Shown here: positions 26,001 through 35,519 of the stretch, one piece after another | Layout of the letters: each line of letters starts with the position of its first letter | How positions within the stretch are numbered: the first letter of the stretch is position 1 | Assembly: GCA_037446815.1 (NCBI GenBank) | Contig: JBBIHX010000009.1 | Span: 1-44,144 of the forward strand | Reading direction: 5' to 3' | DNA: 44,144 nucleotides | Origin: Caldilineae bacterium | GTDB taxonomy: Bacteria > Chloroflexota > Anaerolineae > DTLA01 | Notes under the pieces: model-generated | Told to the model about the DNA's origin: nothing | Database searches by the model: none | What the model saw: only the letters and a program-made list of their open reading frames with translations | Position numbers and translations under genes: made by a program

Positions 26001-27595
26001 AGATCATCAAAGAGCGGATTCGCGAACACAACCTGAATCGCGTCATTGTGGCGTCGTGCACGCCCCGCACGCACGAGCCGCTGTTCCGCGAGACAATCCG
26101 CGAGGCCGGGCTGAACCCGTACCTGTTTGAGATGGCGAACATCCGGGACCAGTGCTCGTGGGTTCACGGGAACGACCCGGCCAGGGCAACGGCGAAGAGC
26201 AAGGACCTGATTCGCATGGCGGTGTGGCGCGCGCGGACCCTGGAGCCGCTGTACAAGCAGGAGCAGAGCCTGTTCCACAGCGCGCTGGTGGTCGGCGGCG
26301 GCGTCGCAGGGATGTCTGCCGCGTTGAGCCTCGCCGAGCAGGGGTTCCCGGTGTATCTGGTGGAGCGTTCGGACCAACTCGGCGGGATGGCGCGGGAATG
26401 GGCGCGCGGCGTGAGCGGCTCTCGTCCCGCCGCAGAGGTGGCGGACCTCATCGCCCGTGTGTTGTCGCACCCGCGGATAGAAGTCCTGCTGGGGACCCGC
26501 GTGGTGAAAACGCAGGGATTCGTCGGCAATTTCCAGACAACGGTTGCTAGCGTGCACGACCCGACGCAGCGGCTGCTGGAGCACGGCGTTACGATTATTG
26601 CCACGGGCGGGCAGGAGTGGCGCGGCCCGGTCTTCGGCCTGGGTTCCCGCCCGGAGGTGGTAACGCAGGGGGATTGGGAGCGGACGCTCGCCGAATTGGA
26701 GGCGGGGCTGCACCCGGACCATCCTTTGCGGAGGGCGGGGGCGACGGTTGCCGTGCTGCAGTGCGTGGGGCCGTGGGATGCTGACCCGTCGCAGGCGTTC
26801 TATTGCAGTCGCGTGTGCTGCGCTGTGGCCATGAAGAACGCGCTGCGCATCAAGGCGCTGAACCCGCAGGCGGCGGTCGTCGTGTTCCACGAGGACGTGC
26901 GCACCTACGCGTTCCATGAGGTGCTGTACACAGAGGCGCGGGACGCGGGCGTGCTGTTTGTCCGCGTGGAGGATAGGCGGCAATTGGAGGTTGTGCACGC
27001 CGACGCGGGCGTGCGGATTCAGGCTCGCGATCCCGGACTCGGGCAGGATGTCGCGGTGCAGGCGGACATGCTGGTGCTGTCCAGCGCCATTGTCCCGGCC
27101 GAGGGGAGCGTCGCGCTGGCCGAGACGTTCAAGTTCTCGTGCACGCTGGAAGGGTTCTTCGCCGAGGCGCATGTGAAACTGCGGCCGGTGGACTTCCCGG
27201 CCGAGGGGCTGTTCTTGTGCGGCGCAGCGCACTACCCGAAGACGATTGAGGAGAGCATTGCGCAGGCTCGCGCGGCAGCGGCGCGGGCGGCCGCCATCCT
27301 GTCCAAGGATGTGCTGGAAGTGGGCGGCATTGTGGCGGTGGTCAATGCCGAGCAGTGCACGGCATGTCTCACGTGCGTGCGCATCTGTCCCTACGGAGCG
27401 CCGCGCATCAACCCGGATTTGAGTGGGGCGGGCGGGATTCATGGCGCGGCCGAGGTCAAGGCGGCGGCGTGCCAGGGGTGCGGCTTGTGCGTTGCCGAAT
27501 GCCCCGCCAAGGCAATCCAGTTGATGCATTACAAAGATGAGCAGATGCTGGCCAAGATAGACGCCCTGCTCATGGCAGAAGGAGGTGCGCGATGA
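23057..27595 (+). CDS. HdrL-type large HdrA with inserted GltD/NfnB-like NAD(P)H-binding module
   Basis: LDKTFPTNDC; PCKNACP…GRVCNHPCE; VVGAGPAG; GGGNTAID…YRR; followed by two further HdrA regions. Confidence 0.9.
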   Translation: MSENTNAPIGAALVVGGGIAGVQAAIDLANAGIKVYLVERSPAIGGKMAQLDKTFPTNDCAICIISPKLAECGRHPNITILTNAEVVGLAGDVGNFTATVRQKPRYVDLERCTSCDDCAKVCPVRLPDEYNEGMRERTAIYRPYAQAIPSAYAITKRGTSPCKNACPADTSAQGYVALIAQRRYAEAFEVVREYNPFPATVGRVCNHPCEGQCNRGKVDAPVAICALKRFVADYVYEHGLEGTAPSVYAVKPDPEAANLPVAVVGAGPAGLSAAYFLARMGHPVTVFEALPVPGGMMRVGIPAYRLPREVLDREIQNILKAGVELKLNTPIRNINNLLEQGFKAVFLAIGAHQPQKLGIPGEDVEGVFHGVPFLRAVALGETPPIGKRVVVVGGGNTAIDTARTARRLGAEQVTILYRRDRESMPANPWEVDEAEREGIRLQLLTAPVEVLSDGGRVTGVRCVRMQLGEPDSSGRPRPIPIPRSEFTISCDTLVAAVAQAPEISLLDPDHGLDVTRFGTFRVDPKTLATNRPGIFAGGDAAKGPGALIEAIAAGRRGALSIHRHLKGEPLLTPREELPLPVAEMSPEEAREHVAGGEASPRPRVAIPMLPVEERLRGFAEVEIALDEESAVREAERCLGCGICSECHRCVVACKAEAIDHQQAPMELEIPVGAVILATGYQLADARGYQEYGFGRYPNVLTALQYERLLSASGPTGGHVQRPSDGREARRIAWLQCVGSRDTRHAYCSSVCCMYATKQALLTLEHVHGAECDVFLMDMRAFSKGFDAYFARAKEQGIRYHRCRVSSVKEDPKTRDLRLTFTDENGAIHEAAFDLVVLSVGMEIPQETRQWAEALGLSLRPEGFARPRPFHPVETDRAGVFVCGALADPKDIPDSVVEASAAAAAALEVIGKARGTQITPKVLPPETAVAPSDEPRIGVFVCSCGNNIAGVVNVAEATRYAATLPGVVHAENTMYTCSPDALKIIKERIREHNLNRVIVASCTPRTHEPLFRETIREAGLNPYLFEMANIRDQCSWVHGNDPARATAKSKDLIRMAVWRARTLEPLYKQEQSLFHSALVVGGGVAGMSAALSLAEQGFPVYLVERSDQLGGMAREWARGVSGSRPAAEVADLIARVLSHPRIEVLLGTRVVKTQGFVGNFQTTVASVHDPTQRLLEHGVTIIATGGQEWRGPVFGLGSRPEVVTQGDWERTLAELEAGLHPDHPLRRAGATVAVLQCVGPWDADPSQAFYCSRVCCAVAMKNALRIKALNPQAAVVVFHEDVRTYAFHEVLYTEARDAGVLFVRVEDRRQLEVVHADAGVRIQARDPGLGQDVAVQADMLVLSSAIVPAEGSVALAETFKFSCTLEGFFAEAHVKLRPVDFPAEGLFLCGAAHYPKTIEESIAQARAAAARAAAILSKDVLEVGGIVAVVNAEQCTACLTCVRICPYGAPRINPDLSGAGGIHGAAEVKAAACQGCGLCVAECPAKAIQLMHYKDEQMLAKIDALLMAEGGAR

Positions 27596-28047
27596 CGGAG
27601 TTTGAGCCGCAGATTCTGGCCTTCGCGTGCCACTACTGTGCCTACGCGGCGGCAGACCTGGCGGGGTCTATGCGCCTGCAATACCCGCCGAACGTCAAGG
27701 TCATTCACGTCCCCTGTAGCGGCAGGGTGGACGTGATCCATATCCTGCGCGCCTTTGAACGGGGCGTGGACGGGGTGTTTGTGGCGGGCTGACTGAAAGG
27801 GACATGTCATTACCTGGAAGGTAATTTCAGCGCAGAGCGTAGGGTCAATTACGTGAAGCATCTTCTGGATCAAATCGGGTTGGGGGGAGAGCGGCTTGAC
27901 ATGTTTTTCCTCGCGTCCTCGGAGGGGGCGCGATTTGCGGAAATCTGCCGAGAGATGACCGAGCGCATCCGCGGGCTGGGGCCCAACCCCATCGCCTCGG
28001 GTGCGGGCACCTCTTCATCGGACACCAAAGGAGGATGTTCAGAATGA
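27592..28047 (+). CDS. mvhD: MvhD/FlpD subunit, predicted selenoprotein (UGA at 27790-27792 = Sec67)
   Basis: Readthrough gives VFVAG-U-LKGTCHYLEGN, aligning with VYVVA-C-PLGNCHHLEGN of the paralog; SECIS-like hairpin follows. Confidence 0.92.
27793..27830 (+). promoter_or_regulatory. SECIS element of mvhD2
   Basis: ATTACCT-GGA-AGGTAAT upper stem-loop, CTGAA/TTCAG lower stem; 23 nt between UGA and the loop G. Confidence 0.8.
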
Positions 28048-29737: not shown

Positions 29738-31168
29738 ATGCCGATCATGATCAATACCGAACTGGCCGATTATATCCTGCGCGAAACAGGCCAGAACGTG
29801 TACCTGTGCTACCAGTGCAAACGGTGCACGGCGGGGTGTCCGGTGGCGCAGTTCTTTGACCTGACGCCGAACCAGATTATGCGCGCCGTGCAACTGGGGC
29901 AGCGAGATATGGTGCTCCAATCGCGCACCATCTCCCTGTGCGCGGCTTGCATCACGTGCAGCACCCGTTGCCCTCAGGGCCTGGACGTGGCGAGGATTAT
30001 GGACGCACTGGAGATTGAGGCGCAGCGCGAGAAGGTGCGTTTGCCCGTTCGCGCGGTGCCGTTGTTCTACCAGTCGGCCCTGCGCGGCATCCGATGGTTC
30101 GGGCGCATGTACGAACTGGGGCTGATGGCGGAGTTGTACCTGCGGCTGTTCGTCCGCCGTCAGTTGAGCCTGCGCCAGTTGTTCAAGTACGATGCGCCGA
30201 TGGCCATCAAGATGTTCCGCAGCGGGAAGCTGAAACTCTTGCCCAGCATCGCCCGCAAGCCCAAGCGAGACCGCGCGCCGTCGCCGCCGGAGCCGGACGC
30301 GATCGCCTACTACCCGGGCTGCTCGCTTCACTCCACAGGGATTGAGTATCAGATGTCCACGCTGGCCGTGGCCGACGCCCTTGGGCTGAAACTGAAGGAG
30401 CCCGAAGGGTGGGTCTGCTGTGGCACGTCGCCGGCGCACTCCACCGACCACTACCTCTCCACGGTGTTGCCGCTGAAGACGCTTGCCGAGGTGGAGCGGA
30501 GCGGCCTCTCCTATGTAACCGTGCCTTGCGCCTCGTGCTTCTCGCGGTTCCGCATCGCGCTGCATGACGTTCGCGCAGACCCCGAATTGGCCGGCAAGGT
30601 GGAGAAGGAGATAGATTACCTTCCGTCCGGCGGGCTTCAGGTGGACTCGCTCCTGACGACTATGACCGACCGGGTGGGCCTGGCGCGCATCGCGGCGGCG
30701 GTGAAGCGCCCGCTCAACGGGCTCAAGGTGGTGTGCTACTACGGCTGCCTTCTCACGCGGCCGCCCGACATCACCGACGCGCCGGAGCCGGAATATCCGA
30801 CGAACATGGACGAACTGATGCGTACCCTGGGCGCGGAGTCGCTGGATTGGTCGTACAAGACCGATTGCTGCGGCGGGTCGCTGTCCATCAGCGTGCTGCC
30901 GGTGGCGCTGAACCTCACGCAGAAGATTCTGCGGAACGCGAAGGAAGTGGGCGCGGATGCGGTGATCGTGGCCTGCCCGCTGTGCCACGTGAACCTGGAC
31001 ACCCGCCAGGCGCAGATTGCGGCGGAGTTTGAGGGCGAGTACGACATCCCCATCCTGTACTTCACGCAGGCGATGGGGTTGGCGTTTGGACTGCCGGCGA
31101 ACAAACTGGGCCTGGAGAAGCACCTGGTCTCACCGTTGCCGCTCCTGCGACAAAAAGGTCTGGTTTGA
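29738..31168 (+). CDS. HdrC-HdrB fusion protein
   Basis: CYQCKRCTAGCP and CAACITCSTRCP (HdrC); YYPGC, CCG twice, CPLCH (HdrB). Confidence 0.92.
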   Translation: MPIMINTELADYILRETGQNVYLCYQCKRCTAGCPVAQFFDLTPNQIMRAVQLGQRDMVLQSRTISLCAACITCSTRCPQGLDVARIMDALEIEAQREKVRLPVRAVPLFYQSALRGIRWFGRMYELGLMAELYLRLFVRRQLSLRQLFKYDAPMAIKMFRSGKLKLLPSIARKPKRDRAPSPPEPDAIAYYPGCSLHSTGIEYQMSTLAVADALGLKLKEPEGWVCCGTSPAHSTDHYLSTVLPLKTLAEVERSGLSYVTVPCASCFSRFRIALHDVRADPELAGKVEKEIDYLPSGGLQVDSLLTTMTDRVGLARIAAAVKRPLNGLKVVCYYGCLLTRPPDITDAPEPEYPTNMDELMRTLGAESLDWSYKTDCCGGSLSISVLPVALNLTQKILRNAKEVGADAVIVACPLCHVNLDTRQAQIAAEFEGEYDIPILYFTQAMGLAFGLPANKLGLEKHLVSPLPLLRQKGLV

Positions 31169-31183
31169 GGTTACTAACGACCG

Positions 31184-31220
31184 GAGAGCGGGCTGAGAGA
31201 GACCCGCTCTCTGTTTGTTT
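31184..31220 (+). terminator. Intrinsic terminator of the hdr/metVF operon
   Basis: GAGAGCGGG/CCCGCTCTC stem followed by TGTTTGTTT. Confidence 0.75.
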
Positions 31221-31248
31221 GGGCATAGTGCCGGGCCATGCCGTTGGC

Positions 31249-31398
31249 GAGTCGGTTCCAAACTGTGTTGGTGAAACGCAGACACACTCTCCTCGCGTGT
31301 CATTGCGAGCGAAGCGAAGCAATCGCACGCCCCGGAGATTGCTTCGGGCGCTCTGCGCCCTCGCAATGACAGCCACCAACAGACCCTGAAACCGAGTC
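31249..31398. mobile_element. MITE copy 5 (150 bp)
   Basis: Perfect 8-bp TSD CCGTTGGC at 31241-31248 and 31399-31406. Confidence 0.9.
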
Positions 31399-32373: not shown

Positions 32374-32497
32374 CCGTCATTGCGAGGGCACGCAGTGCCC
32401 GAAGCAATCGCCGGGGCGTGGGGTTGCTTCGCTTCGCTCGCAATGACACACGAGGAGAGTGCGCCTGCGGCTCACCAACACAAGATGAAAGCGACTC
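32348..32497. mobile_element. MITE copy 6 (150 bp, opposite orientation)
   Basis: Perfect 8-bp TSD GCCGCGAC at 32340-32347 and 32498-32505. Confidence 0.9.
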
Positions 32498-32512
32498 GCC
32501 GCGACCGCGGAT

Positions 32513-32541
32513 TTGACATCCTCCCAGGTCGCGGGTATACT
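32513..32541 (+). promoter_or_regulatory. Promoter of the selenoprotein operon
   Basis: TTGACA-17 nt-TATACT. Confidence 0.8.
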
Positions 32542-32545
32542 CCAG

Positions 32546-32562
32546 ATACCCCATGAGGGTAT
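32546..32562. promoter_or_regulatory. CsoR/CstR-family operator-like palindrome
   Basis: ATACCC-CATGA-GGGTAT overlapping the predicted transcription start. Confidence 0.7.
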
Positions 32563-32569
32563 GTGGAGT

Positions 32570-32995
32570 ATGGCAAGAATCGCCCGAGTCGTGAAGGAGA
32601 ACATAGGGCTGGTCATCTTGGCGGTGATCCTCGCCGCCTCGTATGCCTATCTGCGGACGCCGTCGGATACGCTGACGACAGAGGCCGAACTGGCCGCGAT
32701 ATTCTCGGCAGGGAATCCGGTGCTTGTGGAGTTGTACTCCAACACCTGAAGCGCCTGCCTGATTTCTAAGCCCGCCGTTGACGGGTTTGAGCGTGCGAAC
32801 GCGGGCCGCGTGTCGGTGGTTCGGCTGGATGTGCGGTCGGCGCTGGGCAATGCGCTGGCGTATCGGTTTCAGGTCCGCGCGGTGCCCACGTTTCTCCTGT
32901 TCACGGCGGAGGGCGAACTGGGCGCAACCCATGTGGGAATCGCCACGGCAGGGCGTTTGGCGAATCTGTTGCGCGAAGGAACGGAGGGACGTTAG
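32570..32995 (+). CDS. Membrane-anchored thioredoxin-like selenoprotein (UxxC; UGA at 32747-32749)
   Basis: TM helix, then PVLVELYSNT-U-SACLISKPAV…FQVRAVPTF (Trx fold with cis-Pro motif); two ORF-track fragments join in frame. Confidence 0.88.
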
Positions 32996-32997
32996 GG

Positions 32998-33216
32998 ATG
33001 CCGATTTACGAATACCGTTGCCCGCATTGCGGCAAGGAGTTTGAGAAACTGGTTCCCATGCACACGGATGCGCGCGAGATAGAGTGCCCCCATTGCGGAC
33101 AGAAGGGCGTGGAGAAGAAGATGTCGCTGTTCGGGATGGGCGGGGGCGCGCTGGGGGGCTTCTCGGTCTCTCAGGGCTCCTCGTGCAGCACGGGCGGCAG
33201 CACCTGAGGAATCTAA
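32998..33216 (+). CDS. FmdB-family zinc-ribbon protein, probable C-terminal Sec (…SCSTGGST-U-GI*)
   Basis: MPIYEYRCPHCG…CPHCG; UGA at 33205-33207, TAA at 33214-33216; hairpin GGCGGGCC-GTG-GGCCTGCC starts after an 11-nt spacer from the UGA. Confidence 0.75.
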
Positions 33217-33267
33217 GCGGCGGGCCGTGGGCCTGCCTGGAAAAGTCTGCGGAGAAAGGATGTTTGC

Positions 33268-33621
33268 ATGGCAACGAGTGAGACCGAGCCGGTAGTGGTG
33301 TCTGTTTTCGGCAACGACCTGGTGGAGAGTTGTTTCAGCGGGGGCTGAGGACCGCATTGGTCTTCGGAGGAGACCACGAGGATCGTCGCGCAGTATCTGC
33401 AAGAGGATTTCGGCGACCGTGTGAAGGTGGAGTACTACGAACTGTCGGACCCTGCGCTCCGTGAGAAGTACGCGGACGTGGTGAAGGCGGTGGAGGAGCA
33501 CGGGCTGGCGTACCCGCTGACGGCGATCAACGGGGTGTTCCGCTTTGCCGGCGGGGTGAGTTACTACGCCATCCTGCGTGCGGTAAAGGAGGCGCTGGGC
33601 CTCCCGGAAGGGGAGTCATGA
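33268..33621 (+). CDS. YuzD/DUF1462-like thioredoxin-fold selenoprotein (C-x4-U; UGA at 33346-33348)
   Basis: VVVSVFG…SCFSGG-U-GP…FGDRVKVEYYEL…YPLTAING; RBS AAAGGA; hairpin TGGTCTTC-GGA-GGAGACCA. Confidence 0.85.
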
Positions 33622-33770
33622 ACCTCGGCGACCTGCTGCTACTGGGGATGTTCGCGTTGTTCGCGGTGCTTTGGGTTCTCGTCGGCCCGAAGGTCGGCGT
33701 AGGCGGCTGAGCGGTCCGACCGCCAGCCGCGCCGTCGGCGCGCGACAACTCCTGCGATTCTGACGAGTAG
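33618..33770 (+). CDS. 50-aa single-pass membrane peptide, probable Sec31 (UGA at 33708-33710)
   Basis: ATGA overlap with the upstream stop; MNLGDLLLLGMFALFAVLWVLVGPKVGVGG-U-AVRPPAAPSARDNSCDSDE*; hairpin CGCGCC-GTC-GGCGCG. Confidence 0.62.
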
Positions 33771-33803: not shown

Positions 33804-33831
33804 AAAGGCCCGCTCGGAAGCGGGCCTTTTT
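33804..33831 (+). terminator. Intrinsic terminator of the selenoprotein operon
   Basis: AAAGGCCCGCT-cgga-AGCGGGCCTTTTT. Confidence 0.88.
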
Positions 33832-33877
33832 CGTCGTCGGGGTTCATCTTGTTGCGTTGGAATTGCTTGTAGAAAAG

Positions 33878-33905
33878 TTGACAGAATCGGTTGATAGGCT
33901 ATAAT
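33878..33905 (+). promoter_or_regulatory. Promoter of the MerR-family gene
   Basis: TTGACA-16 nt-TATAAT. Confidence 0.75.
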
Positions 33906-33948
33906 GATTGTGAAGCCCGTTGCGATAGTCTCTAAGATGAGGTGAGAA

Positions 33949-34377
33949 ATGCGTAGCGAATCCACCCCCTTGTACACCATTGGCACAGCAGCGGAACTGT
34001 TGAAGGTTCACCCCCGTACGTTGCGCCTCTACGAGCAGTTTGGCCTGATCCGTCCGGCGCGCAAGAACAATCGGCGCTTCTACTCCGAGAACGACCTGAA
34101 GTGGGTTCAGTGCATCCGGTACTTGATTCATCAGAAGGGCCTGAACCAGGAGGGGCTGCGGCGGTTGCTGGGCCTGATTCCGTGCTGGGAACTCAAAGGC
34201 TGCTCGGAAGAGGACCGTTCCACCTGCACGGCATACGAAGACCGCTCCATGCCATGCTGGGAGGTTGCCAGCAGCACATGCGCCAAGGCCGGCAAGTGCT
34301 ACGAGTGCGAGACGTACCTGGCCGCTCGGCACAGGCTCCTCTCCCCTGATGAGTTGGCGGAGATCAGCGCCGTCTAA
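33949..34377 (+). CDS. MerR/HspR-type regulator with Cys-rich two-CW-like C-terminal domain
   Basis: YTIGTAAELLKVHPRTLRLYE…RFYSENDL; CWELKGC…C.AY…CWE…C…CYEC. Confidence 0.88.
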   Translation: MRSESTPLYTIGTAAELLKVHPRTLRLYEQFGLIRPARKNNRRFYSENDLKWVQCIRYLIHQKGLNQEGLRRLLGLIPCWELKGCSEEDRSTCTAYEDRSMPCWEVASSTCAKAGKCYECETYLAARHRLLSPDELAEISAV

Positions 34378-35519
34378 TGGCGGAGGCCGCGCAGGGGAAC
34401 ATGCGAGTCGTGCTGCTGGAGCCGTACTTCACGGGCTCGCATCGGGCGTGGGCCGAAGGGTACCGGGCTGCCAGCCAGGCGCACATCGTTGACGTCTGGG
34501 CGATGGAGGGGCGGTTCTGGAAGTGGCGGATGCATGGGGCAGCCCTGGAGTTCGCATGCCGAAGCCGAGCCGCTCCGCAGGACCCCGATTTGCTCCTCGT
34601 TACCGACATGGTGAACCTGCCCTACTTCCTTGCCCTGACCCGCCCCCGCTTCGGCGATACGCCCGTTGCGGCGTATTTCCACGAGACGCAGTTGGCCTAT
34701 CCCCTGGCACCTGGGGCCCGGCAGGACCTGACCTATGGGTTCATGAACCTCATCACCGGCCTGTGCGCGGACTGGGTGTTCTTCAACTCCGCGTTTCATC
34801 GCGAGCAGTTCTTTGACGAGTTGCCCCGCCTGCTGAAGCATTTTCCCGACTACAACCATCTGGAAGTCGTCCCCCAACTGCGGGCGAAGTCCAGCGTGCT
34901 GCCGGTGGGGTGCGACCTTGGGCGACTGGATGCTGCGAGGGCCGATGCGCCGCCGCGCACACTCCCACCGCTGGTGCTGTGGAATCAGCGCTGGGAGTAC
35001 GACAAGCAGCCGGAGGTGTTCTTCAGGGCGCTGTCCATCCTGGCCGAGGAGGGGGTGCCGTTTCGCTTGGCGCTGGCGGGCGAGAACTTCCGACAGAAGC
35101 CCGAGGAGTTTCTGCAGGCGAAGGAAGCCTTTGCCGACCGCCTCGTTCATTACGGCCACGCGGACGCGGAGGGGTACGCCCGGCTCCTGTGGCAGGCCGA
35201 TGTAGTGGTCAGCACGGCAATCCATGAGTTCTTCGGCATTGCCATCGTGGAGAGCATCTATTGCGGGGCGTGGCCCCTACTGCCCAATCGCCTCGTGTAT
35301 CCGGAGATGATTCCCCCGTCCCTGCACGCCGCGCACCTGTACGAGGACTTTGATGACCTGGTGCGGCGGCTGCGGGACATCCTGCTGCACCCCCGGCCTC
35401 CCGCGCCAGCCTTGCGCGAGGCGATGGCCCGGTACGACTGGTCGCGTATGGCGCCGGAATACGACCGCGCGCTGGACGCCGTGCGCGACCTCCGCGCGGC
35501 GCAACGCCCTTCGCGCTAG
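34377..35519 (+). CDS. DUF3524/GTDC1-like GT-B glycosyltransferase
   Basis: LEPYFTGSH, WKWRMHG, YFHE, FNSAFH, WNQRWEYDK, HEFFGIA. Confidence 0.88.
   Translation: MAEAAQGNMRVVLLEPYFTGSHRAWAEGYRAASQAHIVDVWAMEGRFWKWRMHGAALEFACRSRAAPQDPDLLLVTDMVNLPYFLALTRPRFGDTPVAAYFHETQLAYPLAPGARQDLTYGFMNLITGLCADWVFFNSAFHREQFFDELPRLLKHFPDYNHLEVVPQLRAKSSVLPVGCDLGRLDAARADAPPRTLPPLVLWNQRWEYDKQPEVFFRALSILAEEGVPFRLALAGENFRQKPEEFLQAKEAFADRLVHYGHADAEGYARLLWQADVVVSTAIHEFFGIAIVESIYCGAWPLLPNRLVYPEMIPPSLHAAHLYEDFDDLVRRLRDILLHPRPPAPALREAMARYDWSRMAPEYDRALDAVRDLRAAQRPSR

Follow-up and report, generated by a model that had tools for sequence, protein, structure and literature searches.

Attack by a selenolate or thiolate, followed by the action of a resolving Cys, is established thioredoxin chemistry. 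The domain family cd02950 is, we assume, the TxlA family of membrane-anchored thioredoxins, and TxlA is presumably a further member of those that are fed by CcdA. Thioredoxins with a UxxC motif are established selenoproteins, and Table 1 of PMC13188914 lists them under PF00085, cd02966 ("thiol-disulfide isomerase-like"), SaoT (NF040730) and HUIPC (NF047660). The predicted product described here has in common with these, as far as that source covers them, the thioredoxin fold, a first motif position occupied by Sec and a SECIS within the coding region. It differs in an N-terminal membrane anchor, a Y-S-N-x-U-S-x-C-L motif without Trp, and a CstR-type operon context. A cd02950-like UxxC group of 212 sequences, GOS Trx-like 3, has also been listed (Table 2 of PMC2398784), and neither a membrane anchor nor an operon or regulator is mentioned in the accessible part of its description. 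The present family, likened to that group by description only, may coincide with it or be its sister. HCF164/CCS5 and ResA/CcmG are membrane-anchored thioredoxins fed by CcdA (accessible part of PMC3842002). Like them and like TxlA, the present product has a single-helix anchor ahead of a thioredoxin domain that is predicted to lie outside; where they have Cys, it has the predicted Sec. On the regulatory side, the persulfide-sensing CstR regulons, in the sections of bioRxiv 10.1101/2021.07.25.453692 that we consulted, have a CsoR-family repressor with an x-C-x-C motif and an operator of the form ATACCC-N5-GGGTAT, which is that of the S. mitis cst core operator. Both elements recur here; in contrast, those regulons control rhodaneses and CoA persulfide reductase, and the present one thioredoxins and small selenoproteins.

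The window, that is, the whole stretch of DNA analysed, comprises positions 1 to 44,144 of contig JBBIHX010000009.1 of a Caldilineae bacterium (GCA_037446815.1). The initial annotation, made from the sequence alone, had proposed a membrane-anchored thioredoxin in which a TGA occupies the nucleophilic, N-terminal position of the CxxC motif and the frame runs on to a VPT cis-Pro motif. Our analysis confirmed this. Codon 60 is the only internal TGA of the ORF and lies in the context ELYSNT-U-SAC, with C63 as the resolving Cys, and VPT is found at P106 of the 141-aa read-through product. The HMM search suggested in the annotation gave a Pfam Thioredoxin (PF00085) score of 37.2 bits against a cut-off of 23.5. 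The N-terminus is basic, and the AlphaFold model built from a 51-row alignment was a thioredoxin fold (pLDDT 92) with an amphipathic helix at residues 2-10 before the hydrophobic helix 12-28. All top PDB matches, from Foldseek and profile searches, were thioredoxins. C60/U, C63 and P106 were invariant across the 51 rows. Thus, the product belongs to PF00085 by the Pfam cut-off, the CxxC-type motif, the cis-Pro and the fold. It is not a TrxA equivalog: TIGR01068 requires at least 96.8 bits, WCGPC and a soluble protein, and the product scored 44.9 bits and is membrane-anchored. A cleaved signal peptide or a lipoprotein was rejected, since the end of the helix has no conserved small-residue motif, lipobox or Cys. 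The features of the locus are collected in Table 1.

Table 1. Coordinates of the thioredoxin gene, its signals and the genes of the same unit (positions in the window).
Feature	Position	Strand	Remarks
Sigma-70-type promoter, TTGACA-17-TATACT	32513..32541	+	11/12 matches
Palindromic CsoR/CstR-family operator, ATACCC-CATGA-GGGTAT	32546..32562	.	Matches the S. mitis cst core operator in form
Membrane-anchored thioredoxin-fold selenoprotein gene (predicted)	32570..32995	+	141 aa; U60-S-A-C63, P106
Predicted transmembrane anchor, residues 12-28	32603..32653	+	Ends in conserved L-R-T
In-frame TGA, predicted Sec60	32747..32749	+	Codon comparison with relatives
Bacterial SECIS-like hairpin, loop GTT 32777-32779	32768..32788	+	27 nt after UGA; comparative
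Gene 2, FmdB zinc ribbon, predicted C-terminal Sec	32998..33216	+	TGA 33205-33207, then Gly-Ile-TAA; hairpin 33220-33236, non-coding
Gene 3, YuzD/DUF1462-like, C-x-x-G-G-U (Sec predicted)	33268..33621	+	TGA 33346-33348; hairpin 33358-33376
Gene 4, small membrane peptide, G-G-U (Sec predicted)	33618..33770	+	TGA 33708-33710; GTC-loop hairpin
Intrinsic-terminator-like site at the end of the four-gene unit	33812..33835	+

No NCBIfam 20.0 model scored above its cut-off for the thioredoxin, gene 3 or gene 4. The SaoT, HUIPC, TsoB and TUGYCR models did not match the thioredoxin product at E 0.01, and its Cys homologs gave weak matches to TsoB and TUGYCR only. Hence the protein represents a subfamily of UxxC thioredoxins, itself a known selenoprotein kind, that no NCBIfam model names. 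Homologs with names came from Anaerolineae and Chloroflexia. In a protein atlas, Chloroflexota clusters were the first neighbours, and cyanobacterial thioredoxin clusters followed at 0.93-0.94, which are leads only. Since database entries split the gene into fragments of 58-59 aa and 69-79 aa, the family is largely hidden.

To describe the distribution of the TGA, we searched 301 genomes of the class with a profile. There were 95 carriers at E 1e-18, including two-helix relatives; the 68 genomes scoring better than 1e-31, about a quarter of those sampled, were taken as the one-helix subfamily, and the other 27, mostly with two-helix relatives, were excluded from the one-helix counts. Codon 60 was TGA in 64 of the 68 genomes and TGC in four. 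The TGA genes, at roughly 32-84% identity, alternate solely with TGY at this codon. Likewise, the 19 best non-self matches from 61 relatives searched each had one TGA, at the same codon. An independent contig about 95% identical left 32747-32749 unchanged among the 40 of 74 differences listed. The annotation had counted homologs lacking Cys at this position as evidence against selenocysteine; Cys (TGC) homologs do exist there. The source genome encodes tRNA-Sec, selA, selB and selD, all over their cut-offs. selA was present in 62 of 63 TGA-form genomes versus one of four Cys-form genomes, and in 262 of the 301 genomes of the class; because the three Cys genomes without selA all belong to one family, this correlation counts as a single event. 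Outside the class, the family was found in 34 of 251 genomes of the phylum (a tally that includes the unpublished genome G335, which no claim depends on). The in-frame UGA thus aligns with the Cys of homologs. Together with the Sec machinery, the TGA/TGC alternation, the TGA-linked stem described below and the loss of selA in three of the four Cys-form genomes, this argues for Sec at the nucleophilic position, as the annotation had claimed. The TGA almost certainly encodes selenocysteine, so that the predicted product is a U-x-x-C thioredoxin. A two-helix paralogous subfamily (L041, L044-L047, L260-L270) likewise has either TGA or a Cys codon at this position and occurs as tandem copies in some genomes.

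The annotation also placed a SECIS-like hairpin behind the TGA. For bacterial SECIS elements, PMC13188914 gives a loop 16-37 nt past the UGA, a G among the first two loop positions and a stem of 4-16 bp. The hairpin agrees with this rule in its spacing, its loop and its stem (7 of 8 pairs). In the MFE fold, the top pair is open, giving a 7-nt loop with G in third place, and in this genus the loop-adjacent pair is a C-A mismatch. As a Val codon also holds the GT of the loop constant, only the stem counts as independent evidence. At fixed geometry, at least seven of eight pairs were formed in 63 of 64 TGA genes versus one of four TGC genes, and the stem was retained in one of nine further Cys homologs. 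Both Cys-form genes that keep it (G077, L151; G263, L153) belong to selA-positive genomes and are likely recent Sec-to-Cys reversions. Among 24 TGA sequences, 85% of the cells were paired, with 26 double changes versus 9.4 in shuffles (0 of 500 reached this value), and slid controls gave 22-50% paired. Some changes even alter the amino acid (CCC-ATC/GAT-GGG to CCT-GTC/GAC-AGG). Relatedness inflates the shuffle test, and so the contrast with the Cys genes is the better control. A hairpin rule was passed by all four TGAs of the unit and by the TGA of the MvhD gene; of 634 ordinary TGA stops, 30 passed it. Thus, the position of the proposed hairpin holds and has comparative support, whereas its loop-adjacent mismatch and its unremarkable stability taken alone (-14.6 kcal/mol, z -0.61) do not add to it.

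The thioredoxin gene likely opens one promoter-to-terminator unit of four predicted selenoproteins. Two promoter-type sites were found in 1.7 kb, versus 0.3 expected in shuffles. Genes 2, 3 and 4 are likely further selenoproteins, judged by their codons and hairpins; these three candidates, the operon and its operator go beyond what the initial annotation of the thioredoxin gene described.

Gene 2 (FmdB): The terminus reads C-x6-TGA-G-I-TAA. Among short FmdB genes with a single tail Cys, gathered beside Sec genes and therefore a biased sample, 50 of 50 stop at TGA and have a second stop 2-6 codons on, and in 47 of 50 a G-loop hairpin follows at 16-23 nt, with freely varying stems. The background of this pattern was 11 of 634 TGA stops in the source genome and one of 19 other FmdB paralogs. 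A role of the hairpin as terminator was rejected, as a T-run followed it in 0 of 47. The FmdB selenoprotein TIGR02605 is listed with a UxxU motif (PMC13188914, PMC2398784). The zinc-ribbon domain is common to both; here, however, both CxxC pairs are Cys, the predicted Sec lies 2-6 residues from the C-terminus and the hairpin is mostly past the stop codon.

Genes 3 and 4: Gene 3 matched Pfam YuzD/DUF1462 weakly; TGA was present in 29 of the best 30 loci, and Cys counterparts exist. Gene 4, a 50-aa membrane peptide found in five of 301 genomes, all of this genus, is the weakest of the four Sec candidates.

Within 3.5 kb of the thioredoxin gene in the 68 genomes (some contigs being shorter), the neighbours were FmdB (41), TrxA (29), a CsoR-family repressor (28), TrxB (13), a YuzD-like gene (13) and OsmC (7), and 16 loci had none of the five core neighbours. 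In one family (L056, L057, L203, L204, L215), the thioredoxin gene stands between a small ferredoxin gene and trxB. A tie to the Hdr/MvhD/MetVF cluster upstream in the window was rejected: of four congeners, G004 alone keeps the cluster, two have different genes upstream and one is at a contig end.

We favour, by a modest margin of confidence, a reading in which the protein would be an inducible reductase at the membrane surface, acting on disulfides or sulfane sulfur within a regulon that is likely induced through the release of a CstR-like repressor. SelB with Sec-tRNA would, almost beyond doubt, bind the hairpin so that the UGA is read as Sec60. The protein would probably insert with its N-terminus in and its C-terminus out, leaving the domain outside. 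Attack by the Sec60 selenolate would then fall on an S-S or polysulfide bond, leaving Cys63 to resolve the intermediate. In CcdA-bearing genomes such as the source, electrons for re-reduction might pass from TrxB or ferredoxin-thioredoxin reductase to TrxA and on to CcdA, which is the weakest step. For induction, it is rather probable that the x-C-x-C repressor encoded on another contig, C77, would come off the operator once persulfide had reacted with its cysteines or they had been oxidised, and all four genes would be induced. Induction of the unit by sulfur or thiol stress is likely.

The side of the membrane on which the domain lies separates this reading from its strongest rival, an unlikely one. 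In that rival, the selenoprotein and the regulon would be the same but the domain cytoplasmic. TrxB or ferredoxin-thioredoxin reductase would reduce it without an intermediary, and it would act on membrane-bound targets together with the FmdB and YuzD-like selenoproteins. The recurring neighbours TrxA, TrxB, OsmC, FmdB and the YuzD-like protein have no evident export signal and would fit an inward-facing domain, the Arg directly after the helix is invariant, and CcdA is never adjacent and went undetected in 17 of the 67 genomes. Against this, in 45 of 51 rows the net charge was higher ahead of the last helix than behind it (33 of 51 for K+R alone); the 51 include one row taken from the wrong strand and two with a wrongly chosen segment. 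Furthermore, the loop that precedes the last helix in two-helix relatives is rich in Arg, which by the positive-inside rule places the domain outside. The outward-facing domain suggested in the initial annotation therefore gains the charge bias as support and is weakened by the carriers in which CcdA was not found. From the charge bias we predict that the domain likely faces outward on an uncleaved anchor.

Electron supply bears on a second, improbable rival, in which the protein would be a housekeeping reductase of the ResA/HCF164 type, fed by CcdA and serving cytochrome c maturation or envelope protein folding. Its architecture is that of the CcdA-fed, outward-facing membrane-anchored thioredoxins, as far as the source cited for them describes these, and profile searches with the product and its homologs gave weak matches to the StoA, DsbD and ResA models. 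However, the source genome, which has CcdA, also has its own ResA/TlpA-like gene beside ccdA, the thioredoxin gene lies behind a repressor operator, and CcdA was encoded within 3.5 kb of it in 0 of 68 loci. CcdA was detected in 50 of the 67 carriers, and several families had little or none of it; the carriers in which it was not found, about a quarter, include eight of the 42 good-quality genomes. A looser CcdA threshold, DsbD_2 and VKOR explain few of these 17, as DsbD_2 was also missing in 13 and VKOR in 16. The data thus do not support CcdA as an obligatory partner. Regarding the cytoplasmic donors, a ferredoxin-thioredoxin reductase domain is present in the source genome, and no TrxB scored over the cut-off in its assembly, whereas TrxB was present in all four congeners. 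If the domain faces outward, as in the preferred reading, the carriers without detected CcdA imply an unknown electron route across the membrane.

The repressor and its operator bear on a third rival, about as improbable as the second: a stress operon for copper or another metal, with a CsoR-type sensor, whose selenoproteins would repair or bind metal-damaged thiols. TAC...GTA palindromes are common to CsoR-family operators, according to the parts of the literature consulted, FmdB is a Cys-rich zinc ribbon, and the His ligand is retained in three of the 28 repressors found as neighbours. In contrast, the other 25 lack His, and the preceding (second-shell) Tyr is missing in all 28. The x-C-x-C motif without His or this Tyr, which we used as the criterion for CstR, was found in these 25 and in the C77 repressor, and the promoter carries a cst-type operator. 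The motif marks persulfide-sensor clusters and has limits (bioRxiv 10.1101/2021.07.25.453692, in part). A copper-type repressor (x-C-H-C) on contig C70 has a different, C-rich upstream site of its own, which resembles the Thermus CsoR site in what is accessible of its description.

The operator, placed after the -10 box and ahead of the start codon, forms part of an extended inverted repeat (32538-32570), and that of congener G004 is identical to the S. mitis cst core operator over 15 bases. TACCY-N4-6-RGGTA occurred within 2 kb upstream of the thioredoxin gene in 40 of 68 genomes and downstream in three of 68; 28 of 68 had no match within 2 kb. Its distance from the gene varies with how many genes of the run come first, and it heads the gene run in the cases checked. 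Since the N5 form has four copies in the source genome versus about eight expected by composition, placement and not rarity is the evidence. One copy precedes the repressor-trxA pair on C77. Another (G000:C160:1683, L286) lies between an 85-aa ORF and a divergent gene that is followed by an AmmeMemoRadiSam radical SAM gene, and it may extend the regulon. Among 43 neighbours scanned, OsmC and a YgaP-like gene were present, and no rhodanese, persulfide dioxygenase or SQR was found.

It is very improbable that the TGA is a genuine stop, or that sequencing error or pseudogene decay put it there, leaving a 59-aa membrane peptide and a separately started 77-aa fragment as in database annotation. All eight homologs from one database search are C-terminal fragments of 77-79 aa and the hairpin alone is ordinary, but the TGA recurs at the same codon in 64 divergent genomes in alternation with TGY only, its stem covaries, and the C-terminal fragment would be without the active site.

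The interest of the locus thus lies in a hidden family and in a CstR-like selenoprotein operon, and it ties selenoproteins to a CstR-type regulon. More speculatively, and doubtful as a whole, the Anaerolineae may possess a selenium-based defence regulon against reactive sulfur: a CstR-like sensor would free up to four small selenoproteins, the outward Sec-thioredoxin would reduce surface polysulfide and disulfides, and an undescribed transmembrane carrier would recharge it where CcdA is missing. The C-terminal-Sec FmdB and the YuzD-like protein are two selenoprotein types missing from the 119-family list. Table 1 of PMC13188914, which has several Trx-like families, contains no DUF1462/YuzD entry, and terms for these families had no matches in the deep-Sep main text, in PMC12013277 or in the consulted part of the BSepDB supplement. 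The further papers compared, in part, were PMC13326102, PMC5016687 and PMC10318464. A literature search for selenoprotein with DUF1462 returned no paper, and a full-text search returned none linking selenoprotein, CstR, persulfide and thioredoxin in bacteria; Haft and Tolstoy (2025), which lay outside its scope, could describe the neighbourhood.

Several other features were observed in the window. The MvhD-type hydrogenase delta subunit at 27592-28047, a known selenoprotein type, has an in-frame TGA at 27790-27792 with a GGA-loop hairpin and sits in an hdrA-mvhD-metV-metF-hdrBC cluster. Directly after the operon, at 33878-34377, a perfect sigma-70 promoter precedes the gene of an HspR-like regulator of the MerR type whose C-terminus is rich in Cys; a glycosyltransferase with a QTMAN_N domain is encoded at 34377-35519. 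An intergenic repeat containing gtcattgcgagggcgc is present at 31165-31389 and 32377-32500, and also at L147 beside a resA-like gene.
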